Shown one piece after another: positions 46,141 to 60,188 of a DNA stretch of 64,000 bases. Position numbers and translations under genes: made by a program. The stretch comes from Candidatus Marinacidobacterales bacterium. GTDB taxonomy: Bacteria > Acidobacteriota > Vicinamibacteria > Marinacidobacterales > DATDRI01. The notes beneath the pieces were generated by a model. It had not been told where the DNA came from. It worked only from the letters and a program-made list of their open reading frames with translations, and searched no databases. Location of the stretch: positions 3,104,001-3,168,000 of the forward strand of contig OZ245365.1 in the NCBI GenBank assembly GCA_965226495.1, given 5' to 3'. Within the stretch, counting starts at the first letter, position 1, and every line of letters begins with the position of its first letter.

Positions 46141-47385
46141 CTAGAGAGTCAAATCAGCCGGCGCGCCCCCCAAGGCCGCGTCGAAGAAGTCCAGGACTCG
46201 ATTCCAGAAGATGCCCGGGGGAGGGTAGTTGTCGAAACCATGTTCGCCGCCCGGCAACAACCATAGCTCGCTTGGAAGGCCGGCATCGCGGCGTAAAGCA
46301 TCGAGACGCTCGGAGTGATAGGGCGGAAACAGATCGTCGGCGTCGCCGTGGATGAACAACACCGGGGCACGAATCTCGGCTATGGCGTCGGCGGGGCGGA
46401 TGTTCATTAGATCGATGCCGGCGCGCCAACGAAGCGCCACGCTGAGCGGATAGCGAAGCCAGGTGCTCACCCCTCGCAAGCTCAACATCTCCCCGGCGGC
46501 AGCCCAAAGGTCCGAATAAGGCGCATCGAGTGCCAACGCGGCGAGCGCGGGATCCTGGGCCGCGGCAAAGATGGCAGATGCCGCACCGTTCGAGGTTCCA
46601 AAGACCACCACCGCATCTGGCCGGACCGATTCCTGCTGGCGGACCCACTTCGTCATGCTGGCGACATCGAGGCGCTCGTTCACGGTATAGGTCACGAAAT
46701 CACCTTCGCTCGCTCCTCGGCCGCTCAAATCCATGGCAAGAAGACCGTATCCGCGACGATACCAGTGCGTCGCACCTTCCAATCCTTGGAACCGAGATGA
46801 TTTCGCGCCATGCACGAAGACGCCGACTCGCCCATCGCTTCCTTCCGGTGGCGGGATGAACCAACCTTGGAGCTTGAAGCCGCTGGCCGAAGCAACCTCG
46901 ACATCCTCGTAGGGAAGCCCAAGGTCCCCCGGGTTTCGGAGAAACGGTTTGAGCACTAACTGAACGTCCCGGGAGGCCCCTCCCTCTCTTTCCACGATCA
47001 ACCTCACGGCATCGCCCGCCTCGTAGTCGGTGACGAACAAACTGTGAAGCTCCCTGCCGTCCAAGACACTAAGAGGTTTGCCATCGAGGCGAGTGATCAC
47101 ATCGCCGGAACGCAATCCGATCTCCCGTCCCGACTCCCAAGGTCGGAGGATCTGCAAGCCTTCGGGATTCTCCGAACGTTTAGTCCAACCCAAAAAAGCG
47201 GAGCCGGGCACCGGCCCCCCGTCCCGGACGGGATTGCCGAAGAAGTCCCGACCCGGAACACGGCGCTGCCCCGTGAGATACGAGAGCGCCATTCGATCTA
47301 CAGTGTAGACACCGAATCCAAGGAGACCCACCAGCAAAACGGTGAGCAATCTCCAGACCCAACGGCGTTTCCGGCTCAATAACAT
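46141..47385 (-). CDS. Membrane-anchored PDZ-domain alpha/beta hydrolase
   Basis: N-terminal TM; PDZ GLRSGDVITRLDG; FVHG; GTSNG nucleophile; IHGDAD; GGEH. Confidence 0.82.
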   Translation of the reverse strand: MLLSRKRRWVWRLLTVLLVGLLGFGVYTVDRMALSYLTGQRRVPGRDFFGNPVRDGGPVPGSAFLGWTKRSENPEGLQILRPWESGREIGLRSGDVITRLDGKPLSVLDGRELHSLFVTDYEAGDAVRLIVEREGGASRDVQLVLKPFLRNPGDLGLPYEDVEVASASGFKLQGWFIPPPEGSDGRVGVFVHGAKSSRFQGLEGATHWYRRGYGLLAMDLSGRGASEGDFVTYTVNERLDVASMTKWVRQQESVRPDAVVVFGTSNGAASAIFAAAQDPALAALALDAPYSDLWAAAGEMLSLRGVSTWLRYPLSVALRWRAGIDLMNIRPADAIAEIRAPVLFIHGDADDLFPPYHSERLDALRRDAGLPSELWLLPGGEHGFDNYPPPGIFWNRVLDFFDAALGGAPADLTL

Positions 47386-47480
47386 TCCTCTTTACAAACT
47401 GACCAGTTCACAGAGCATCATAGCCATCGGGCGACCACGGAGCAAAGTGGCAAGACTGTGCTACATTAGCCCTTCGCTCG

Positions 47481-47945
47481 ATGTCCACCACCTTTTCCCG
47501 CTCGATGCGCTCGCTCGAACGCGACGGGTTTCGTTTCAGTCTGACCGTCTTGCTCATCGCTGCATTGCTTCTTGTAGCGTGGGGCGTTTGGTTTTTCCTC
47601 GCGACGGTCCCCGTGTACACGGTTGTCCACACGTTCGATTTAGATGTGAACAGCGGGGCGACACATATTGTCGTGGAGCTCGAGGCCAGTGAAGCGGCGA
47701 ATGTCCGACCACAACAAAAAGCGTGGATTCGTTTGACGGGTGCGCGCGCACTACCCGCGACGGTAACTCGCGTCGTCAATGAGCCCGTACCGGGTGGGGA
47801 CGGCAAGACGCGCATCGAGCTCGCTGTTGAAGAAGACGCCGGCTCACTTCTATCAGAGCAGAACAACCTACAGGGAACAGTCGAGATCGAAGTAGAACGT
47901 TTAACCCCCTCGGCGCTCGCACTTCGTTCGATCAGGCGCGACTGA
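47481..47945 (+). CDS. Short HlyD-like membrane fusion protein (lacks the long coiled-coil hairpin)
   Basis: N-terminal TM (LLLVAWGVWFFLA); beta-barrel-like VRPQQKAWIRL..LPATVTRV..LQGTVEIEVERLTP; directly upstream of ABC exporters. Confidence 0.6.
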   Translation: MSTTFSRSMRSLERDGFRFSLTVLLIAALLLVAWGVWFFLATVPVYTVVHTFDLDVNSGATHIVVELEASEAANVRPQQKAWIRLTGARALPATVTRVVNEPVPGGDGKTRIELAVEEDAGSLLSEQNNLQGTVEIEVERLTPSALALRSIRRD

Positions 47946-47956
47946 GGCTCCGGACC

Positions 47957-50620
47957 TTGCGCGCCCGGCATCGTTTCTTCGCACCAGAGGTCGTCCAGTC
48001 GTCGGCAATGGACTGTGGACCGGCCGCGCTCAAGAGCTTGTTGGACGGCTTCGGGATTCCGGTGAGCTACGGCCGGCTACGAGAAGCCTGCCAAACCGAT
48101 GTCGACGGCACCTCCATTGACACATTGGAGGGCATTGCCGTCGAGCTCGGTCTCGAAGCCGAACAGATCTTGGTGCCAACCGATCACGTCCTCTTGCCGG
48201 CGGCGCATGCCCTCCCCGCCTTGGCGGTTGCCGAGCTGCCAAACGGTGCGGCCCATTTTGTCATCGTGTGGAGTCGACATGGTCGACTCGTGCAAGTCAT
48301 GGACCCCGCCTTCGGGCGAAGATGGATCTCCGAGACACGATTTTTGCAGGAGCTCTACCAGCACACCATGCTGATCCCGGCCGCCGCATGGCGTGAGTGG
48401 GCAGTCTCTGACGAGGCTCGCGGCGCCATAGAGTCGAGACTCGATGGCCTGAAGGTTCAAAAAAACACTTCACGCGATCTGATCGGGGAAGCGTCTACTC
48501 ATCCAGACTGGAGGGCTTTGGCAAGACTGGACGCCGCGCTCCGGGCAACCGACTCCGTCGTGCGAGCTGGCGGCATCGGTCTCGGTGATGACGCAACGCG
48601 GGTCCTGAAGGGCCTTATCGAAAGCGACGACATTCCGGAACACTTTTGGTCGGCTCGCCCCGCTGATGATGCTGATGAGGAGTCGGAGCGAGAGGAGCAC
48701 GTCTGGGCACGAGGAGCGGTGCTGGTTCGAGTGCGCGGACGTCGCCCATCGTCCAGGGACTCCTCTGAGCAATCGACGGAAGGACTATCGCCGGAGCTCG
48801 TCGCGGCTCGCGAGGAACCTACTGCCCGCCCCGGAAGGGAGCTATTTAAACTGCTGCGGGCCGATGGACTGTTGTCTCCGATTGCTTTGACACTCGCCTT
48901 GTTCGTGGCAGCCGGCGGGCTCGTGATCGAAGCACTACTCTTTCGTGGCCTGCTCGATTTGGTTCCCGCGCTCGGCTCGTTGACGCAACGAGTGGGCGCC
49001 TTCACCGCGCTCGCCGCTTTCGTTTTGTTTCTACTGATCCTCGAGCTCCCCATCGCGGGGGGCGTCCTTCGTCTCGGACGAAGGCTGGAAGGCCGGTTGC
49101 GCATAGCGTTCCTTGAAAAGATCCCTCGGCTCGGAGACCGTTACTTTCGAAGCCGACTGATCTCCGATATGGCGGAGCGAAACCATAGCGTCCATGGCCT
49201 GAGGAATCTCCCGAATCTGGGCGCGATCTTCATGGCTTCCTTCTTCGAGCTGGCGTTGACGGTGGCGGGAATCATCTGGCTCGCGCCCGCGAGTGCTCCG
49301 GTCGCTCTTCTGGCAGGAGCTCTCGCGCTCGGACTGCCGCTGGCTGGTCAACCCGTCTTGATGGAAAGGGACCTTCGCGTACGAAGTCACCTGGGCATCC
49401 TCAGCCGCTTCTATCTGGATTCGCTCCTAGGGCTCGTGGCGGTGCGCGCCCATGCCGCTGGGTCTTCCATCCGAAACGAGCACGAGGCGGAGTTGGTGCA
49501 GTGGACGAGAGCGCGTTTTTCGTTACAAGGGGCCGTGGTCGGTGTCGAGGGTATTCAGGCTTTGACCGGATTCGGAGCGGCCGCCTTCCTCCTGATCGGC
49601 CACCTGGATCGAGGAGGAGACCTGGGGAGCGTCCTGCTGCTGGTTTATTGGGCGCTCAATTTGCCATTTCTCGGTCTGACCATCGCGCAACTCGCTTGGC
49701 AATATCCAGCTCACCACAACGTAACGCTTCGATTGACCGAGCCGCTCGGTGCTCCCACTGACGAGTTTGACGAGCTCGGCGCTCGGTCACACGGCCCAAC
49801 AAAGAGCGAGCCTGAAAAGAAAACCGGAGTCGCGCTGCAGTTGCGGGAGCTGAGCGTGCGAGCCGGCGGGCACCTCATCCTCGATCGCATCGATCTCGAT
49901 ATCGATGCCGGAAGTCACGTGGCGGTCGTCGGCCATTCCGGCGCCGGCAAGTCGAGCCTGTTCGGGGTTCTCCTCGGCTGGCATCGGGCAAGTCATGGGG
50001 AGGTTCTGGTCGACGGCGTTCCCCTAGACAGAGGCGAGCTCGGGCGTCTCCGCTCGGCAACCGCTTGGATCGATCCGTCGGTTCAAGTCTGGAATCGCTC
50101 ACTGTCCGCCAATCTGCTGTACGGGAACGAGGTGCCTGCCATGCATCTCGAGATGGCCATCGATCAAGCCGATCTCCGCGAGGTCTTAGAATCGTTGCCG
50201 CAAGGCGAAGCGACGCTCCTAGGGGAGAACGGCGGATTGGTTTCGGGTGGTGAAGGCCAAAGAGTAAGGCTCGGCCGCGCGATGATGCGCTCGTCGGTGC
50301 GTTTGGTTCTCTTGGATGAGCCGTTTCGGGGCCTTGGCCATGAACAACGGGCAACACTACTCGCTCGCTGTCGGGAACTTTGGAAGCACGCGACGCTTCT
50401 GTGCGTCACTCACGGGATCGCTGAGACCGATTCGTTCGACCGCGTGCTCGTCATGGAAAGTGGAAAGCTCGTCGAGGACGGCACTCCGGAATCACTCGGT
50501 GCCCCGACAAGCTCTCGCTACCGCAGCCTGCGGGAGTCCGAAGAAGCGGTTCGCGCCGTGTGGACTGACGAGTCTTGGCGCCGGCTCGAGCTCGTCGATG
50601 GAAAGTTGGCCGAGAAATGA
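47957..50620 (+). CDS. Peptidase-containing ABC exporter (C39 + TMD + NBD)
   Basis: QSSAMDCGPAALK (Cys), AHFVIV (His), VMDPAFG (Asp); GHSGAGKS; VSGGEGQR; LLDE; CVTH. Confidence 0.93.
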   Translation: MRARHRFFAPEVVQSSAMDCGPAALKSLLDGFGIPVSYGRLREACQTDVDGTSIDTLEGIAVELGLEAEQILVPTDHVLLPAAHALPALAVAELPNGAAHFVIVWSRHGRLVQVMDPAFGRRWISETRFLQELYQHTMLIPAAAWREWAVSDEARGAIESRLDGLKVQKNTSRDLIGEASTHPDWRALARLDAALRATDSVVRAGGIGLGDDATRVLKGLIESDDIPEHFWSARPADDADEESEREEHVWARGAVLVRVRGRRPSSRDSSEQSTEGLSPELVAAREEPTARPGRELFKLLRADGLLSPIALTLALFVAAGGLVIEALLFRGLLDLVPALGSLTQRVGAFTALAAFVLFLLILELPIAGGVLRLGRRLEGRLRIAFLEKIPRLGDRYFRSRLISDMAERNHSVHGLRNLPNLGAIFMASFFELALTVAGIIWLAPASAPVALLAGALALGLPLAGQPVLMERDLRVRSHLGILSRFYLDSLLGLVAVRAHAAGSSIRNEHEAELVQWTRARFSLQGAVVGVEGIQALTGFGAAAFLLIGHLDRGGDLGSVLLLVYWALNLPFLGLTIAQLAWQYPAHHNVTLRLTEPLGAPTDEFDELGARSHGPTKSEPEKKTGVALQLRELSVRAGGHLILDRIDLDIDAGSHVAVVGHSGAGKSSLFGVLLGWHRASHGEVLVDGVPLDRGELGRLRSATAWIDPSVQVWNRSLSANLLYGNEVPAMHLEMAIDQADLREVLESLPQGEATLLGENGGLVSGGEGQRVRLGRAMMRSSVRLVLLDEPFRGLGHEQRATLLARCRELWKHATLLCVTHGIAETDSFDRVLVMESGKLVEDGTPESLGAPTSSRYRSLRESEEAVRAVWTDESWRRLELVDGKLAEK

Positions 50621-52760
50621 GACTGTCTACGGTAGATCGCCAGAGCATGCGCCATCTCTCGTGGCCGGTCGAGGAAATGGCGGAGGGGTTGTCGCTCTTG
50701 GCACGACGTGCGGGCCTCGGCCCTCGTAGCGCGCAGATACCTTCCCTCGGCAAGAGCGCACGAGACGACACGATCACTCATTGGATGGCATCCAGCGCCG
50801 CGTGGATGGGGCTCGAGGCTCAGCCCGTCGAGTCCACCTATCTGGAGCTTCCTGGGTTTCTCTTACGATCGGGCCCGGCGGTCGTTCGCCTGCCGGATCC
50901 TGACGCGAACCGTTTCCTGCTGGTCTTGAAAGGCACGGGGAAAGACGTTTCGATCCTCGGAAACGACCGAACCATTCACTCAATACCTCTCGCACGACTG
51001 GAAGCAGCCTTGGCACCGCACGACGCAGACCGAGTTGGCGATGCGGTCGACGAGCTTCTCGATAGTGTCGGGCTCGCCGGACTCGATGGAGCCCGTCGCC
51101 AGCGCGCCCGAGACGTAATGGTGCGCGAGCGGTTAGGCCAAACTGTGGTGGGCACTTCCTGGATATTGCGTTTGCCCGCTAGCGCCAGGACCAAATCGTT
51201 GGTGCGGCATACGCGCCTCCCCCAATACGTCCTTGCCTTCTGTGGAGCGCACACCGTTCAGTATCTCCTGTGGATCGCTTCGTGGTGGGTGATCGGACGC
51301 GGCGCCATTGAAGGCCGCGTGGATTCGGGATGGTTGGCCGCTTGGGTACTTCTACTGCTTACTATGATCCCATTCCGACTACTCGCTACGTGGTTCGAGG
51401 AACTGTTCAGCATTCGGGCCGGAGCACTCCTCAAACAGAGACTTCTCCAGGGGGCGCTTCGACTCAACCCGGACGAGGTTCGCCACGAGGGGGCCGGTCA
51501 TCATTTGGGTCGCGTACTCGAATCAGAGGCTGTCGAAGATCTCGCTCTGACGGGAGGCTTCTTGGCGTTGGTCGCTGGGATCGAGCTGGTCATCGCGACG
51601 GGTGTTCTCGCGACAGGTGCGGGGAGCGGGTACCACGTCGTGCTTCTGGTCGCCTGGCTCGGGGTGGCGTCAGTGGCGGGTCACGATTTCTTCCGAAGGC
51701 GTCGTCGTTGGACGCAACTTCGGTTGAGCATGAGTCACGAGCTCGTCGAAAAAATGGTGGGACACCGGACACGACTCGCGCAGCAAAATCCGCAACAGTG
51801 GCACGACGGCGAAGACGAGGAGCTTGCCCGCTATCTCGGCGTCTCGCGAGCCATGGATCGAGCCACCGTCAGACTCTCGGCTTTACCGAGGGGGTGGCTG
51901 TTCGTCGGCGTTGTCGGTCTGGCACCCTCTGTCATCGGTAGCCAAGCAAGTGCAGGCCTCTTAGCGGTGGGGTTGGGCGGCATGCTTCTCGCCTATCGAG
52001 CCCTCGACAAGCTGGTCGATGGCTTCTCCGATCTTGCCGACGCCGTCATCGCTTGGGAACAAGTGTCTCCCCTTTTCTATAGCGCTCGGCGGAGAGAAGC
52101 TCCCGGCGACCCGGCCCTCGCAATTCCACCGGATACCGAGCACTCGTCGACGCTTCTCGAGGCTGAAGCGATCGACTTTCGCTATCCGGATCGAGCGTCC
52201 CCGACCATCAGGGAGACGAGCCTCAGAATCTCGGTGGGCGATCGAGCGGTCGTTGCCTCACCATCGGGAGGGGGCAAGTCCACGCTCGTCTCTCTACTGA
52301 ATGGGCTTAGGACAGCAGATTCAGGGTCACTGCTCCTTTACGGGCTCGACCCGCAACAACTCGGCGCCGAGCGTTGGACTCGAAGAGTCGCCGCAGCCCC
52401 ACAGTTCAATGAGAATCACGTGTTCACCGAGACGTTGGCCTTCAATCTCCTGATGGGGCGAGGCTGGCCGCCGCACCCCGGCGATCTAGAAGCGGCGCAG
52501 GAGTTATGTCAGGAGCTCGGCTTGGGTGAGCTCATCGAGAGAATGCCGGGGGGGCTCTTCCAGATGGTCGGCGAAATGGGCTGGCAGCTCTCCCATGGTG
52601 AAAAGAGCCGACTCTACATCGCCCGGGCGCTGCTCCAGGGGGCCGATGTCGTCATCTTGGACGAAAGCTTCGCCGCCCTCGATCCCGAAAATTCTCGCCG
52701 TTCCCTCGCCTGCGCCCTCGACCACGCCCCTCTAGCCTCCTTGTAACCGCGCATTCCTGA
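50617..52760 (+). CDS. Second ABC exporter subunit with degenerate C39-like N-terminus; terminal frameshift
   Basis: ATGA overlap with the upstream stop; SPSGGGKST; LSHGEK; VILDE. The frame stops at 52746, but the H-loop SLLVTAHS* continues in another frame to 52760. Confidence 0.88.
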
Positions 52761-52807
52761 CATTGTAGGCGCGTACCCACGCCGGAGTCTGCCCCCGGGG
52801 TGTGGGC

Positions 52808-52836
52808 TTGACACCACGACGACTTTCTTGTATATA
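52808..52836 (+). promoter_or_regulatory. Near-consensus sigma70 promoter for the small peptide gene
   Basis: TTGACA-N17-TATATA. Confidence 0.7.
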
Positions 52837-52927
52837 GGTCCTACAGCTGTCTGGCTCGGCCAGCGGGGGGATGTTCCCACTGTTGTCTAGGCCAGGTTCT
52901 AAACCCGTTAAGGGGGGCGAAAGCCAC

Positions 52928-52987
52928 ATGAAGGTCAAAACCAAATTGAAGGCAGGGTGGAGCATAAGAAGAGGGCGAGGAAAGTAA
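52928..52987 (+). CDS. 19-aa precursor peptide MKVKTKLKAGWSIRRGRGK, putative substrate of the C39 exporter
   Basis: ATG..TAA, preceded by a purine-rich aagggggg RBS and its own promoter. The leader ends in AG (double-glycine-like). Too short for the ORF track. Confidence 0.75.
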   Translation: MKVKTKLKAGWSIRRGRGK

Positions 52988-53002
52988 GTAAGCCCTTTTT
53001 TT
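52968..53002 (+). terminator. Weak intrinsic terminator candidate overlapping the peptide 3' end
   Basis: agggc...gccct followed by a T run; the loop is long. Confidence 0.3.
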
Positions 53003-53051
53003 CCACAGATTACGGGTTTCTAGAAAGCGGGCGGCAGGGAACTGTTGCCCG

Positions 53052-56000
53052 TTATTTTTTTAACCTCAGGAGGCTAGCTGGCACGCCTACCTCGCCCGCC
53101 GCCCTGGCAGTCGCCGCACGACTGGCGGTCTGTTCCAGCAAAGTTCTCACCTGCCTTAGCCCTAGGAAGGAGCTCGAATGCTCGGGCAGTAAGCTGCTTA
53201 GAATCCATTCGATCGTCTCGGCCGCCTTCGAAAAAGCGCTCCTTGCCTCCTCAGGCCGATCGAGCTGATAGGCCTCCCCAAGCGTCCCGTACAATTCGAA
53301 GAGTAGTGGTCTTCCGGAAAACGACGCCGCGAGTCGGATCGCCTCCTGAGCTTCCATTTCCGCGCGGACGGCGTCCCCTTGGGCTAAGTACACTCGGGCG
53401 AGCGCCGCAGCGGCTTCTGCCTCGATGACCCGAAGCCGTGATTCCGCTGCGTCTTCCTTTCCCTGGCGCAAAATGCGCTGCGCCTTGACGAGACTCCCGT
53501 CCGCCAATTGAATTCGTCCAAGCTCGACGGCCAACATGAACTCGGTTCTTTTTTCACCGATGCGGGAGCAGGCTTCCTGGGCCGACTGGCTCATCGCGAG
53601 AGCCTCGTCTTCACGGCCCTGAAACCGGTGCAGCCTCGATTGGCTGAGTAGAATGAACGGCAAGTGATTGTCGGCCGGGGCTTCGCGGGCTAGTTGCGCG
53701 GCCTCACTCAACTCCTTTTCCGCCGCATCAAACTGGCCCAGTGTTGTCAAGAGGTGGCCCAGACGCGCCTTCGCGTCCGCCATGTCGGAGTCCATATCGC
53801 GCTCTTTGTAGATACGTAGACCTTGTTGGATAGCATTGTAAGCATCTCCGTAACGACCTTGCTCTGCGTAAGCCTCCGCGAGGTGGAGTTGGACCATCGC
53901 GACGCCGATGATCTGTTCGATTTCCTGAAAGATCGGGAGTGCGGCCAACAGAGAGTCGATTGCCATGCGGTGTTGCCCCTGGGCTTTCCGAACGACGCCG
54001 ATCTCTGTCAAGTTTGCGGCTTTTTCTTGCTTGTCGCCGGAGCGGTCGAGGTAGGTCTTGGCTTGCTCTAAATAGACCATTGCGTCGTCGTACTGCCCGC
54101 GCCGCCTGTAGATCTCGGCAATGTAATCCAAGCAAATGGCGAGATTGGTAGCATCCTGATGCTCCATCTCGATGCGCATGGATTTCCGCAAAGCGTCCAA
54201 CGCTTCGTCCAGTTTTCCCGCCTCCTTGTAGGTCAGACCGATATTCAGGAGCGCCATCGACTCGGTCGCTTGGTCGCCGATCTCGCGGGAAATGGCTAGC
54301 GCCTGGTTTTCCGCTACCAGGGCCTCATCGATGTCACCACGGAATTCGTACACGGCCGCGACATTCAACAGCGCGATGGCCTCTCCTCCCCGGTCCCCCG
54401 CCTGTCTGCGCAGGCTCAAGGAAGTGATGAAATAGTCCATCGCAGTGTCCAGGTCGCCCGTGTCCCGATACGCCGTACCGAGAATGGCGTGGATCCTTCC
54501 CAGCGACTCCATGTCATCATCGAATTGACCCGTCTCGAGCGCTTGCTTCAGCGACCCGATGGCCTCACCGGCGAAACCGCTCGCCACCCGTGCTCGACCG
54601 AGTCCAAGAATGGCGGCTCCGTAATCGGGAGCCAGCGTGACGACACGTTGATAGGATTTCATCGCTTCGGGGTATTCTCCGAGCTCCTCTAGCGCACCGG
54701 CCAAGCTCAGCTCGATGTCGGGATCTTCCGGATAGAGCTTGGCGAGCTCTCGGTAGCTCTCGGTCGCGGTCTCGAAATCGTTGTTCGCGAGCGCTTTGAT
54801 CGCGTGTATCTGGTAGCGTTCGGAGAGTGGAAGTGACGCACTCTCGGAAAGCTCGTCGGCGCGGGCGATCACCTCCTGCGCGTCCTCATACCTACCGCCA
54901 CCAATGTAGGCTTCCGCGAGCTTCGCATACGCCATGGCAAAGTTCGGATCGGCTTCGGTGGCCTCGGTGAAAAACGGTATCGCTTCTTGATTGGCCCCGG
55001 CGCGCGTCTTCTCTAACCCACTTTGATAGATCCGAAGCGCATCGAGCGAAACGGTGGAGACTTCGACGATGGGCCGGTCGATGTCTCCCTTGAGCTGCTC
55101 GGGGCTCAAATCGAGCTGCTCCTTCACTCTTTCAGAGATTTCGTCCACCATCGCAAAGATCTGCGATGTCTGCCCTTCGACTTTGATGGGCGTCGGTACA
55201 CCGGAATCACCTTGTCTCAATGTCAGATCCATGCGGAATTGCTCACCCGATGTGACAAATTGCCCGTATAGCACCGCCTGCGCCGGTGCCATGTCGGTGA
55301 CCGAGCTCAGCGTGGATTCGTCGAAACGAGTTTGCCCTTCGACGCCGAGCTCCCGTAGAACCTTGAACACACGCTCCCCCGGAACCGGCCGCACGTATCG
55401 AGACTGAGAAAGGTCGGTAATCACCATTTCCGGAAGCCCGTTCCGCATCCACTCGAGCTCGCCGGAACCGGTGGCGTTGGTGAAAGGCAAAACAACAAGG
55501 GTCGTCACCGGCCCGTCTTCTCCAACGACCGGTTCGGTAGCTCGCGTGCCCCTCGACAGGTAAGTAGTACCTCCGACGACGAGGGTCAATGCCGCCGCGG
55601 CAGCAAACCCCGCTCTACGACGGACCAGCCCTCTCCAGGCCTTCAACGTTAACGAGTTATCGACCTGCTCCCGGTCGAGATCTTCGAGCACTTCCGCCGC
55701 GTTCTTGTAACGCAGCTCGCGGTCTGTATCCAAGCATTTGAGGACGACCTTTTCCAAATATTTAGGGATGGTGGGATTCAACTCACGAGGTGGGCGCGGC
55801 TTCTGCGTGAGCCGCATCATGACCTTGGCAACCGCAGTATCCGCCTCGTAGGGGACCGCACCGGTCAGCATCTCGTAGAGAATGACGCCGAACGAAAAGA
55901 GATCGGATTGCGCGTCGGTCGACTCGCCACTCACCTGCTCCGGAGACATGTAATCCGGCGTACCCAAGATCGAACCGGTCGTGGTCATGGTGGAGGTGTC

Positions 56001-56711
56001 GGAAGCGCGGGCGATACCGAAGTCCATGATGTGCGGCATGCCGTCACGACTGACCATGATGTTCTGGGGCTTCAGATCGCGGTGAATCACCTCCTGCTCA
56101 TGTGCCTCTGCGAGAGCACTGAGCATCGGTGGAAGCATTTCCCGCACCGTCTCCACTGGGATACTCCCCTCTTTGCGGATCACGTCCTTGAGGCTTTCTC
56201 CGTCGATGAGCTCCATAGTGAAGAACTTGATCCCGCGCGCCTCACCCAGGTCGTAGATTCGAACGACGTTCTTGTGGGTGATGCGACGGGCCAGCAGGAG
56301 CTCCTGCTTGAATCGCTTCAAGACGCTCGGATCGCCGCTACTTTCACCCCGGATGATCTTGAGGGCGATCTCTCGATCGAGCTCGAGGTCGCGCGCTTTG
56401 TAGACGCGCCCCATTCCCCCTTCGCCGATGAGCTCGATGATCTCGTACCGATTGCCGAAGCGAGTCAGACGGGGGAGCACCCTCGTCATTCCGGACAGGG
56501 TCGCCGACTCGAGAATGTCTTCTAGGGATGCCGGGGAATCTGTAGCCACCCCGAGTGAAGGGGTCTCGTCGGGCAGTGGCTCGGAGTCGGGCGGGGCACC
56601 GCTTCCACCTCCACTTCCACTACCAAAGATATCGACGAGCAGCTCGCCACAGCCCTGGCACTCGACCAGGTCCTGAGCGTTAGTTTCGCCACAGGCGGAG
56701 CAATCCTTCAT
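53052..56711 (-). CDS. Receptor-type Hanks Ser/Thr kinase: Zn ribbon, kinase, TM, TolB-N-like domain, many TPRs
   Basis: CSAC..CQGC; GEGGMGRVY; HRDLKPQN; DFG; GTPDYMSPEQ; TM AGFAAAAALTLVVGG; LVVLPFTN; TPR repeats. Confidence 0.93.
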   Translation of the reverse strand: MKDCSACGETNAQDLVECQGCGELLVDIFGSGSGGGSGAPPDSEPLPDETPSLGVATDSPASLEDILESATLSGMTRVLPRLTRFGNRYEIIELIGEGGMGRVYKARDLELDREIALKIIRGESSGDPSVLKRFKQELLLARRITHKNVVRIYDLGEARGIKFFTMELIDGESLKDVIRKEGSIPVETVREMLPPMLSALAEAHEQEVIHRDLKPQNIMVSRDGMPHIMDFGIARASDTSTMTTTGSILGTPDYMSPEQVSGESTDAQSDLFSFGVILYEMLTGAVPYEADTAVAKVMMRLTQKPRPPRELNPTIPKYLEKVVLKCLDTDRELRYKNAAEVLEDLDREQVDNSLTLKAWRGLVRRRAGFAAAAALTLVVGGTTYLSRGTRATEPVVGEDGPVTTLVVLPFTNATGSGELEWMRNGLPEMVITDLSQSRYVRPVPGERVFKVLRELGVEGQTRFDESTLSSVTDMAPAQAVLYGQFVTSGEQFRMDLTLRQGDSGVPTPIKVEGQTSQIFAMVDEISERVKEQLDLSPEQLKGDIDRPIVEVSTVSLDALRIYQSGLEKTRAGANQEAIPFFTEATEADPNFAMAYAKLAEAYIGGGRYEDAQEVIARADELSESASLPLSERYQIHAIKALANNDFETATESYRELAKLYPEDPDIELSLAGALEELGEYPEAMKSYQRVVTLAPDYGAAILGLGRARVASGFAGEAIGSLKQALETGQFDDDMESLGRIHAILGTAYRDTGDLDTAMDYFITSLSLRRQAGDRGGEAIALLNVAAVYEFRGDIDEALVAENQALAISREIGDQATESMALLNIGLTYKEAGKLDEALDALRKSMRIEMEHQDATNLAICLDYIAEIYRRRGQYDDAMVYLEQAKTYLDRSGDKQEKAANLTEIGVVRKAQGQHRMAIDSLLAALPIFQEIEQIIGVAMVQLHLAEAYAEQGRYGDAYNAIQQGLRIYKERDMDSDMADAKARLGHLLTTLGQFDAAEKELSEAAQLAREAPADNHLPFILLSQSRLHRFQGREDEALAMSQSAQEACSRIGEKRTEFMLAVELGRIQLADGSLVKAQRILRQGKEDAAESRLRVIEAEAAAALARVYLAQGDAVRAEMEAQEAIRLAASFSGRPLLFELYGTLGEAYQLDRPEEARSAFSKAAETIEWILSSLLPEHSSSFLGLRQVRTLLEQTASRAATARAAGEVGVPASLLRLKK

Positions 56712-58026: not shown

Positions 58027-58596
58027 ATGATGAGCCAGGCAGACCTCACCCGAAATGTGGGACGGGTCCGGGCCGGCGAATCCGATGCGTGGGGTCAGCT
58101 TTATGAGGAACTTGCTCCATCGGTCTTTCGTCTGTGCCGACGGGTCCTGCCGACTCGCCAGGACGCTGAGGATGCGACCACGGAGATTTTCTTGAAGGTG
58201 CGGCTGAGGCTCGATCAATACGATTCCGGGCGGCCGTTTCGACCGTGGCTCTATAAGCTAGCGTCGAATCATTGCTGGGACGAGTTGCGCAAGCGCCGGA
58301 CCCGGCGCGAAACCGAAGCAGGCGACCTGGACGCGCTGCACGTCGAGAGCTCCGAAGACAAACAGCCGGGTCCACTCGCGTCCCTCCTCGCCGAGCAGAA
58401 CAAGAAGGATATTCGCGGGGCGGTTGCCAAGCTCGGTGAGCGAGATCGTCTGGCGATCGCAATGCGCTACTTCGCGGAACTCAGCTATCAAGAGATCGCC
58501 GATGTGCTCGGAATCAATTCCTCGGCTGTCGGCGTTCTTCTCCTGAGGGCGCGGCGTCGACTTCGCCAAACGTTAGTGGAAGGGAGCAAGGAATGA
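58027..58596 (+). CDS. ECF sigma factor
   Basis: DAEDATTEIF; FRPWLYKLASN; LSYQEIADVLGI..LLLRARRRLR. Confidence 0.93.
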   Translation: MMSQADLTRNVGRVRAGESDAWGQLYEELAPSVFRLCRRVLPTRQDAEDATTEIFLKVRLRLDQYDSGRPFRPWLYKLASNHCWDELRKRRTRRETEAGDLDALHVESSEDKQPGPLASLLAEQNKKDIRGAVAKLGERDRLAIAMRYFAELSYQEIADVLGINSSAVGVLLLRARRRLRQTLVEGSKE

Positions 58597-60188
58597 CTCA
58601 CATCGACGAGCTCTCCTATCTGCGCTACCTGGACGGACAGCTTGCCTCGACCCGTGCCCGAGAGGTGGAAGAGCACACTCGGGCCTGCTTCGAGTGCAGC
58701 AAGAAATTCGATGCTTTGAAACACGAAACGGCCTTGCTCCGTAGTTCCTTAGTAGAGGCGGATGAAACACTACCGAAACAATTCGAGGCATCTCCCAGCG
58801 AGGAGCTCTCATGGGCATGGCTCAGCGTCCTTGGCCTCGCCGGCTTTGGGCTCTACATGCTGTGGGAATGGTTACTGATACCTTGGTGGCAGGGTCTGCA
58901 ATCCGTTGGAGTGGGACAGCAGACGATCCTTTCGATCCTGCTGTTCCGTGGGCTTCTGTGGGAAGGATGGTCGACGATGGCGGAAAAGGCGGTACAAGGT
59001 TTGATTCTAATCATCCTGACGGCCTTGCTGGCAACCATGGTGCATTGGGGCTCTCGTTTGCGTAGGAACTGGACGCGGATGATGGTCGCCCTGGTGTTGG
59101 TGCTCTTGTTCCCTCTCTCCACTCTGGCCGCGGAAATCGAAGCCGACCGAGACCACTACGTCCTTGCTGAAGGCGAGGTGATCGCTAACGATCTCATCGT
59201 CGTGGCAGAAACGGTCCGCATCGAAGGGACCATCGAGGGAGATCTGATCGCGGTCGCCCAATCGGTCACGGTGACCGGCCGAGTCGCCGGCGACGTACTC
59301 GCCGCAGTCCAGAAACTAATCATCGACGGCCGCGTCGACGGGAGCGTGCGCGCCGTGGCACAGTTCATCGATCTGAAGGGCTTCGTCGCAAGAAACGTCA
59401 CCGCTGCCGGCGAAAGCATCGAGCTCCACGCCGACGCCGTAGTAGACGGAAGCTTCACCTCTGCATCCGAGAAAGGCAGCGTCGATGGACAAGTGGGACG
59501 CGACCTCATCGTTTTCTCGGGAAAGAGCCGCGTCAACGGCCGCATCGGTGGAACAGTTCGGTTGGCGGGAGGAGCTATCACCATCGGTCCCGACTCCGAG
59601 ATTGGAGGCGACGTCCGCATCTTTACTAGTAAGGAGCCAGAGATTTCCCCGGAAGCGAGTCTTGCGAGCGAGCCGGAGATCGAGATCATCAAGGAGACGC
59701 CGGAGTATGCGAGTGCAGGAACTTATCTGTGGCCGGTCGTTTTCTGGGCGGCGGCCTTTGTGTACGGCTTGGTGATACTGCTAGTGCTGCCAAGATTCTT
59801 TGCTGGCGTGCTCGGCCGGATACCGAGGTACGGCCTTTCGATCGGCATTGGAGCCGCCGCTCTCGTAGCCGTTCCGGTGCTGGCCACAATGATCTCCATG
59901 ACGCTGGTCGGGCTCCCGGTTGGAATCCTCGCTTTCGTAGCCTATGTCGTAGCTCTCTACTCGGCACAGGTCTTCGTTGGGGCGTGGCTGGGACGAGAGC
60001 TGTTGGGGCCACCGCTAGGGCAAGGCGACGCTATCGGAAAGCTCGCCCTCGGGCTGGCCTTGATCCACATCGTGAAGCTCGTTCCGTTCGTTGGGTCGCT
60101 GGCGGATCTCGCGGTATGCTTGTGGGGCTTGGGCGCGCTCACCCTGTACTTCGTGCAGCCCCACGTGACGGAGACCGTAGCAGCCTAA
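58593..60188 (+). CDS. Zinc-finger (HxxxCxxC) anti-sigma fused to bactofilin-like beta-helix repeats and a C-terminal membrane domain
   Basis: EEHTRACFEC; TM helices; repeats G.I/V.GDL/GSV; about five C-terminal TMs; overlaps the sigma gene stop (ATGA). Confidence 0.8.
   Translation: MTHIDELSYLRYLDGQLASTRAREVEEHTRACFECSKKFDALKHETALLRSSLVEADETLPKQFEASPSEELSWAWLSVLGLAGFGLYMLWEWLLIPWWQGLQSVGVGQQTILSILLFRGLLWEGWSTMAEKAVQGLILIILTALLATMVHWGSRLRRNWTRMMVALVLVLLFPLSTLAAEIEADRDHYVLAEGEVIANDLIVVAETVRIEGTIEGDLIAVAQSVTVTGRVAGDVLAAVQKLIIDGRVDGSVRAVAQFIDLKGFVARNVTAAGESIELHADAVVDGSFTSASEKGSVDGQVGRDLIVFSGKSRVNGRIGGTVRLAGGAITIGPDSEIGGDVRIFTSKEPEISPEASLASEPEIEIIKETPEYASAGTYLWPVVFWAAAFVYGLVILLVLPRFFAGVLGRIPRYGLSIGIGAAALVAVPVLATMISMTLVGLPVGILAFVAYVVALYSAQVFVGAWLGRELLGPPLGQGDAIGKLALGLALIHIVKLVPFVGSLADLAVCLWGLGALTLYFVQPHVTETVAA

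Follow-up and report, generated by a model that had tools for sequence, protein, structure and literature searches.

A conserved 19-codon gene between a C39-peptidase ABC exporter and a Ser/Thr kinase gene in Acidobacteriota: a probable export substrate and candidate peptide signal

Peptide pheromones exported by ABC transporters with a C39 peptidase domain are textbook matter in Gram-positive bacteria; to our knowledge, they are poorly documented outside this group. Acidobacteriota, a phylum that abounds in soil and sponges, are difficult to grow in culture. Here we analyse a 64,000-nt stretch (the window, whose positions serve as coordinates throughout) of contig OZ245365.1 from assembly GCA_965226495.1, the 6.3-Mb genome (G000) of a Candidatus Marinacidobacterales bacterium. 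In it, an open reading frame (ORF) of only 19 codons, which we call the micro-ORF or micro-gene, lies between the two genes of an ABC exporter and a convergent Ser/Thr kinase gene. We take this gene to be real and separately transcribed; its peptide probably serves the two-subunit exporter beside it as a dedicated substrate and may be a pheromone for the kinase.

The closest described systems are the double-glycine peptides and their peptidase-containing ABC transporters (PCATs), such as ComC-ComA, LahA-LahT and the class II bacteriocins. According to an excerpt of one source (PMC10885120), double-glycine leaders have 15 or more residues, form an amphipathic helix, end in GG, GA or GS and are hydrophobic at positions -4, -7 and -12. 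Our locus resembles these systems: it encodes a ribosomal peptide, conserved at its N-terminus and variable at its C-terminus, next to an ABC transporter with a catalytic N-terminal C39 domain. Similarly, a small-residue pair closes the conserved part, and position -4 is hydrophobic, being L, I or V in 14 of 14 peptides (this and all other 14-genome tallies include an unpublished genome, G007). It differs in the length of the conserved part, 10 residues against the 15 or more given in the excerpt (PMC10885120), and in the repeats of the motif inside the precursors of its relatives. In addition, the pattern L/M-K-V-K-T-x-V-K-A-G would be strand-like, not an amphipathic helix. On sequence grounds, the system thus appears to work like a double-glycine peptide with a PCAT exporter, while failing two testable defining sequence features of that class.

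The second relative is the NHLP/Nif11 cassette, which, as an excerpt of PMC2887384 describes it, combines an HlyD-like protein (TIGR03794), an ABC transporter with a peptidase (TIGR03796) and one without (TIGR03797), with a large Ser/Thr kinase beside some of the precursor clusters. The same combination of HlyD-type, C39 ABC and second ABC genes is found in the multi-unit clusters described below and in G005, G004 and G024, where the HlyD-type gene lies upstream of the exporter; this three-gene export architecture is complete in relatives, whereas the window retains a 154-aa HlyD remnant. Unlike the cassette, the window has a degenerate C39-like domain on its second ABC subunit, and neither the 19-aa micro-peptide nor three multi-unit relatives match an NHLP or Nif11 leader. 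A further parallel, PatS of heterocyst-forming cyanobacteria, is the product of a micro-gene of 13-17 codons whose active signal is a C-terminal basic Gly-rich pentapeptide, and HetC, an ABC exporter with a peptidase domain, is implicated in its processing; the micro-gene studied here differs in its neighbourhood and in its conserved N-terminal motif. In the Gram-positive circuit of ComC, ComAB and ComD, the receptor ComD is a histidine kinase. We propose the same logic for our locus, namely a peptide cut and exported by a C39 ABC transporter (for ComA/ComC, see the excerpt of PMC10885120) and sensed by a nearby membrane kinase; the candidate receptor here is instead a Hanks-type Ser/Thr kinase with a tetratricopeptide repeat (TPR) region, and the host belongs to a phylum of Gram-negative type, Acidobacteriota.

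The micro-gene and its putative expression unit consist of the following elements:

52804..52818, + strand: conserved -35 block GGGCTTGACACCACG, with TTGACA at 52808-52813; core invariant in 11 of 12 aligned loci
52831..52836, + strand: -10-like hexamer TATATA, separated from the -35 element by a 17-nt spacer; TAnnnT/A at equal spacing in the alignment
52910..52917, + strand: G-rich Shine-Dalgarno-like sequence AAGGGGGG, 10 nt 5' of the ATG; GGAGG-type sites in the same place at other loci
52928..52987, + strand: micro-ORF of 19 codons plus stop (52985-52987); product MKVKTKLKAGWSIRRGRGK
53026..53063, + strand: intrinsic terminator found by a terminator tool, with a 12-bp stem (7 G-C), a GGAA loop and a T-run

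Judged from the conservation of these elements, the micro-gene is a real, separate transcription unit with its own promoter, ribosome-binding site (RBS) and terminator. The -35 block (GGGnTTGACACCACG) occurs once in the 6.3-Mb genome, and the only locus of the 12-locus DNA alignment without its invariant core is that of G034, where the micro-ORF is flanked by transposase genes. In the same alignment, a TAnnnT/A hexamer follows 3' of the block at the same spacing, and a GC-rich hairpin lies past the stop in 8 of the 11 other loci, with a T-run in view for four of them; the remainder of the spacer, outside the -35 block, RBS and hairpins, is not alignable between families. A simple sigma-70 scan of 51500-54500 returned 0 promoters because it requires a T at the last -10 position, where the micro-gene hexamer ends in A; the promoter claim therefore rests on conservation.

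A first-pass annotation of this sequence had described a complete expression unit of TTGACA-N17-TATATA, a G-rich RBS, a 19-codon ORF and a T-tract, and all of these elements are present. Its completeness holds for promoter, RBS and ORF but not for the T-tract, a run of seven T at 52996-53002 after the stop that has no hairpin before it. The real terminator lies at 53026-53063, where a stem (53026-53053) is followed by ATTTTTTTAA, just beyond the stop of the convergent kinase gene. A longer in-frame ORF of 38 aa from the ATG at 52871 was considered as the gene; its 5' part is common to the same-genus G002 only and absent from the other loci, and the start is therefore placed at 52928. No match was obtained with the Rfam 15 covariance models across 50000-56000 (E up to 1), or with NCBIfam and Pfam on the peptide region (E up to 10). 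Upstream of the -35 block, by about 10-30 nt, G005 carries a perfect palindrome, GTTAC-N5-GTAAC, and in the same place the loci of family f2 carry GTTAC followed by TAC(A/T)C; the window and G002 have a GC-rich inverted repeat, CCCAC...GTGGG, instead. The GTTAC-type repeat is a possible operator.

The gene is conserved in the manner of a coding sequence. A DNA search of 41 genomes (40 relatives and the window's own) found the stretch elsewhere only in G002, at 80% identity, where the micro-ORF reads MKVKTSIKAGPSIRRGR; between the two, eight codons are changed synonymously against three replacements, and the residues SIRRGR are retained despite five synonymous codon changes. At the protein level, orthologues of the second ABC subunit (723 aa) occur in 19 of the 55 genomes of the order, namely the window's own and 5 of 7 in family f1, 13 of 19 in f2 and 0 of 28 in f3. 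An ORF of the same type, with 15-20 codons, adjoins the exporter in 14 of these 19. In the remaining five (G024, G020, G030, G006 and G054), the contigs stop between 0 and about 1.8 kb beyond the ABC gene, and the sequence up to that point contains no such ORF. Neither the DNA nor the protein search had a match in the same-genus G001. Besides those of the window and G002, the peptides read:

G005: MKVKTRVKAGPSSDRGTGF
G004: MKVKTKVKAGPGTGGGHD
G026: MKVKTRIQAGWKGKKF
G034: MKVKTRIQSGSGGNQFNHYP
G010: MKVRSRIQAGPGDGKQY
G008: MKVKTRIRSGGHGGCGKQF
G022: MQVKTRIRSGWSGQHGKQF
G028: MTVKTRIRAGDGGKKF
G032: MTVKTRIRAGEGGKKF
G038: MKVKTRIKAGTGRKF
G053: MRVKTRIKAGARRKRRKRF

Across the 14 peptides, residues 1-10 are conserved, with the consensus M-K-V-K-T-x-I-K-A-G, and a tail of 5-10 residues is variable; residues 9-10 are AG in 10 peptides and SG in 4, and the f2 tails mostly finish in G-K/R-K/Q-F/Y. 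The tryptophan noted earlier at the start of the core is not a general feature, as it stands in only 3 of the 14. Variation in codons 2-10 of the 14 genes is concentrated at codon position 3, with a mean column entropy of 1.50 bits against 0.45 at position 1 and 0.41 at position 2, and all four codons are in use for Val3 as well as for Gly10. This pattern indicates that selection acts on the translated product rather than on the RNA. Scanning the genome for the peptide motif, as had been proposed, returned one occurrence in all.

Transcription finds support in public data. Of 24 listed public runs, 20 contain the 2-kb stretch 52000-54000 wholly or partly, three of them metatranscriptomes, two from one study and one from another, labelled sponge metagenome. 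Each of the three yields one RNA contig on this stretch, at 52878-53172, 52866-53130 and 52876-53032, so that, out of the exporter 3' end, the micro-gene and the kinase 3' end, RNA assembly recovered just the micro-gene and its terminator; a DNA run covers the full 2 kb. We take these contigs as supporting evidence for transcription and not as proof of the transcript start, as they tell neither the strand nor the ends nor the level of an RNA, and as RNA libraries may contain carried-over DNA. Absence of a transcript, together with absence of similar ORFs beside orthologous exporters, had been named beforehand as the finding that would speak against the gene; RNA contigs cover it and similar ORFs stand beside 14 of the 19 orthologous exporters. 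Thus, a conserved unit, its presence in RNA libraries and homologous ORFs at orthologous exporters bear out the earlier claim of a genuine micro-gene. In a sponge metatranscriptome preprint (10.1101/2023.06.09.544420, in excerpt), precursor-peptide genes, of another family, are often by far the most transcribed of their cluster. At 53031, a position in the 5' arm of the terminator stem, the RNA contigs of runs X18 and X19 have C instead of the window's G.

The exporter is encoded directly upstream, on the same strand:

47481..47945, + strand: remnant of an HlyD-type membrane-fusion gene, 154 aa, its middle missing; matches the HlyD of G005
47957..50620, + strand: ABC exporter subunit of 887 aa with an N-terminal C39 peptidase domain (PF03412, 1.8e-21, and ABC_tran)
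50575..52746, + strand: second ABC exporter subunit of 723 aa with an N-terminal C39-like domain without the conserved Cys, by domains and structure model

The C39 domain of the 887-aa subunit, the sole one in the 6.3-Mb genome, bears the motifs expected of an active enzyme, and the columns of Gln18, Cys24, His104 and Asp120 are invariant in 11 of 11 aligned C39 domains. The micro-peptide therefore has what a double-glycine/PCAT substrate has, a cognate C39 ABC transporter with catalytic Cys and His. For the 723-aa subunit, Pfam gave no match on the first 230 residues. A structure model of its N-terminus (mean predicted local distance difference test score, pLDDT, of 74.9) resembles C39 and C39-like domains, with Z of 9.4-10.6 over 116-128 residues at a root mean square deviation of about 3.2 A; for these targets, Foldseek gave weak E-values (3e-3 to 2e-2). 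No Cys is found among the invariant columns of a six-sequence alignment of this N-terminus, and we read the modelled domain as a putative, catalytically dead C39-like domain. Scores against the NHLP/Nif11 transporter models lie far below the curated cut-offs. For TIGR03796 the score is 155.9 bits and the cut-off 853.3; for TIGR03797, with its cut-off of 709.4, the 887-aa subunit reaches 126.2 bits and the 723-aa subunit 90.7. The HlyD of G005 has 398 aa; the remnant matches its residues 1-59 and 281-377 in one open frame and has lost about residues 60-280, and Pfam finds nothing meaningful in the remnant. A 187-aa ORF on the opposite strand (47408..47971, -) has no family match and, given the HlyD match of the + strand at this place, looks spurious.

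On the other side of the micro-gene lies the candidate receptor:

53052..56711, - strand: Ser/Thr kinase of 1219 aa with a kinase domain, one hydrophobic segment and a long TPR region, by domain scans

In all 14 genomes, the order of the module is C39-ABC, second ABC, micro-ORF and convergent kinase-TPR gene. The latter adjoins the micro-ORF in 14 of 14, whole or fragmented in 13 and as a 3' remnant in G002, and the micro-ORF stays at the kinase end in G034, G028 and G038 despite transposase or integrase insertions after the ABC gene. Between the ABC gene and the micro-ORF, or around the micro-ORF, G034 (L027 11098-14174) has Mutator-family and DDE transposase genes, and G028 (L032 10656-12773) and G038 (L037 10281-13100) have integrase genes and genes of unknown function. 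The 19-residue stretch of highest hydrophobicity (Kyte-Doolittle mean 1.5-3.0) stands directly after the kinase domain, behind an Arg/Lys cluster, in six of six orthologues of the kinase. From this we infer a single-pass protein that would have its kinase domain inside and a TPR part of about 800 residues outside. Pfam returned nothing meaningful for the region after the membrane segment.

The window gene is not alone. Outside the order, orthologues of the exporter with 42-57% identity adjoin longer unannotated precursors in Acidobacteriota relatives. These multi-unit precursors carry the motif at the protein start and again in internal repeats, each copy followed by a short variable segment and then by a second motif, N-H-N-E/Q-T-L-V; KVKTNVKAG-like and NHNETLV-like motifs thus enclose variable segments of mostly 4 residues. 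Since the motif is repeated inside precursors, it behaves as a unit-flanking recognition sequence and not only as an N-terminal leader. The precursor genes stand in tandem at some loci, three of them in L042 (1259-1951); others are found in L049 (9668-9850) and L053-L131.

A database search with one 60-aa precursor brought up 74 proteins of 33-105 aa, unnamed or called 'hypothetical protein' and none with a Pfam domain, and a metagenome scan brought up 429 stretches encoding multi-unit relatives. Like the window's peptide, 124 of 152 distinct precursors open with Met and two further residues ahead of the K-T of the motif; most of the precursors have 2-3 units. Of 298 variable segments, 170 are 4 residues long and 137 have Gly as their first residue. 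In the last unit, a short tail often takes the place of the second motif (73 cases), several of these tails being basic like that of the window. The layout could be that of a hairpin with a variable tip or of a multi-core precursor, and the window gene appears, on motif and neighbourhood, to be the smallest member of a large unannotated peptide family.

The neighbourhood of the multi-unit genes is similar. Among 18 metagenome loci of at least 5 kb, 8 carry HlyD and/or two ABC genes (50-56% identity to the C39 subunit of the window), 11 carry exporter or HlyD genes or a gene for a TPR protein, 8 have a kinase-domain match and 3 have none of these genes. The TPR protein of one multi-unit cluster matches the TPR part of the window kinase weakly, at 25-26% identity with an E of 3e-10 that comes from a two-sequence comparison of repeat proteins. 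For the L049 C39 domain with its 60-aa precursor, a complex prediction (score 0.08, mark 0.32) offers no evidence either way. Three multi-unit relatives have no match in NCBIfam and Pfam at E up to 10 and no family model, and the 60-aa relative matches none of the 30-32-aa proteins of the protein collection. A full-text literature search with five motif strings of the multi-unit family found no paper. Literature searches on the peptide-exporter-kinase module likewise brought up nothing relevant. A degenerate DNA pattern of the motif hit 3 of 400 other genomes of the phylum, against 1 hit for a reversed control, and only G268 holds a family member adjoining exporters; the hits in G219 and G264 have no exporter match within 1.5 kb and may be chance. 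The sponge 'srp' precursors, which the excerpt of 10.1101/2023.06.09.544420 describes as 252-bp NHLP-type genes, were set aside as not belonging to the micro-ORF family.

From the observed anatomy, coding-type conservation, linkage to exporter and kinase and presence in RNA libraries, we propose the following steps of cleavage, export and sensing. Residues 1-10 (M-K-V-K-T-x-I-K-A-G) would be the recognition sequence of the C39 domain, and the single active cysteine peptidase of this type would probably remove them after Gly10. The variable tail, WSIRRGRGK in the window, would then be released outside the cell, most likely to act as a pheromone-type signal that the outward-facing TPR region of the convergent membrane kinase would read. 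The first-pass annotation had called the 10-residue N-terminus a leader and inferred a distinct minimal leader class from it. Our data sustain a conserved part that differs from double-glycine leaders, and a class that is both real and distinct, while its removal as a leader remains the inferred part of that claim.

More tentatively, and with less confidence, we suggest a three-part peptide signalling module, previously undescribed, in Acidobacteriota and in soil and sponge metagenome bacteria. It would comprise a precursor of 15-20 residues with a strand-like leader of 10, an exporter whose one active and one dead C39 domain would serve to cut and secrete the peptide, and a receptor-type Ser/Thr kinase that would sense the released peptide of 5-10 residues through an external TPR region. 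The window gene would be its minimal form, and the multi-unit members would be arrays of mostly four-residue variable segments between two motifs. If true, this would provide a testable case of peptide, exporter and receptor kinase in Acidobacteriota. If confirmed, the 10-residue C39 recognition sequence could serve as a compact tag for peptide processing. Moreover, the protein collection searched gave nothing below 30 residues, so genes of micro-ORF size are invisible to routine annotation.

Several observations weigh against the reading of the peptide as an exported signal. In the peptide itself, all 14 sequences have K or R, basic and not hydrophobic, at position -7; an N-terminus of 10 residues has no position -12; AG or SG, not GG, GA or GS, stands before the variable part; and Pro follows Gly10 directly in 5 of 14, which is unusual at a scissile bond. 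The exporter of the window's genome may be impaired, as its HlyD gene has lost its middle and two extra bases at 52730 end the second ABC early (...HAPLASL instead of the ...SLLVTTHT-like tail with its conserved His, as in G002). Neither G002 nor DNA run X2 has the two bases, and the difference may be one of strain or an assembly error. Run X2 has two further differences from the window, one inserted T at 52415 and TTC at 53264. G002 retains the micro-ORF even though its exporter genes are interrupted and only a 3' remnant of its kinase is left. In the test applied to the kinases, no hydrophobic segment came out for the TPR protein encoded in the multi-unit cluster L042, and a cytoplasmic role of the TPR part is therefore possible. 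The limits of the RNA contigs given above belong here too.

Some of these points suit an explanation in which the peptide is translated and neither cut nor exported, acting as a small basic intracellular regulator that would bind the exporter, the dead C39-like domain or the TPR partner. The prolines after Gly, a conserved part that is the N-terminus itself, the L042 TPR protein and the retention of the gene in G000 and G002 despite the HlyD remnant and the interrupted G002 exporter would all be consistent with it; we nevertheless regard it as unlikely, given the gene's linkage in 14 of 14 genomes to an exporter whose catalytic C39 domain is intact, the leader-plus-cargo pattern of a variable tail beside a conserved N-terminus, and the membrane-anchor-like segment ahead of the TPR part in the kinase orthologues. 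The micro-peptide could instead be the precursor of a peptide made by the ribosome and modified after translation (RiPP), with a modifying enzyme encoded elsewhere and the kinase/TPR protein serving maturation rather than sensing. The short variable segments between two motifs (4 residues in 170 of 298) recall a multi-core precursor, a Thr is conserved within the motif, and the kinase-TPR protein has sub-threshold NCBIfam matches to peptide-modification-system/RiPP TPR families (TIGR04510, 5.6e-37; TIGR03903, 1.3e-44; NF041717, 6.5e-25). However, all of these scores fall under the curated cut-offs, no known maturase family appears among the scanned neighbours (window, L026, L029, L042 and L049), and only exporter, TPR protein and kinase are conserved as neighbours across loci, which makes this explanation quite unlikely.

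The state of the exporter also raises the question of whether the gene is a functionless leftover of a decaying system in the window's genome. The shortened HlyD, the altered C-terminal frame of the second ABC, the interrupted ABC genes and truncated kinase of G002 and the lack of a match in G001, both of the same genus, would fit decay. Against it stand the eight synonymous codon changes versus three replacements relative to G002, the micro-gene being the only part of the 2 kb in three RNA libraries, and the possible strain or assembly origin of the 2-base difference absent from another DNA run; we consider decay very improbable. Least credible to us, and only barely so, is an incidental ORF within a non-coding or antisense transcript that would act on the kinase gene at its 3' end. 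Two RNA contigs do extend 78 and 120 nt beyond the kinase stop codon into the kinase coding region, and the 5' leader blocks are highly conserved between G000 and G002. Outside the genus, in contrast, the peptide is conserved and the leader RNA is not; the variation has three-base periodicity, with four codons each for Val3 and Gly10; and Rfam gives no match in 50000-56000 at E up to 1. We thus favour a dedicated export substrate with a possible signalling role.

Other genes lie on either side of the module. Beyond the 1219-aa kinase-TPR gene is a gene for a kinase of 307 aa, and further on, at 58027..60188, the stop of an ECF-type (extracytoplasmic function) sigma factor gene overlaps the start of the next gene, which encodes a 531-aa bactofilin-domain protein; the two may be a sigma/anti-sigma pair. 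In G002 (L031 10434-12143), a deletion fuses the last 219 kinase-TPR residues to the middle of the bactofilin-domain gene and takes out about 5 kb still present in the window. A serine peptidase gene of S9/S15 type, with an N-terminal hydrophobic segment in its product, lies divergent from the exporter (46141..47385, - strand); it is common to G002 only and therefore falls outside the conserved module. An ECF sigma gene is also found beside the precursor genes of L042.

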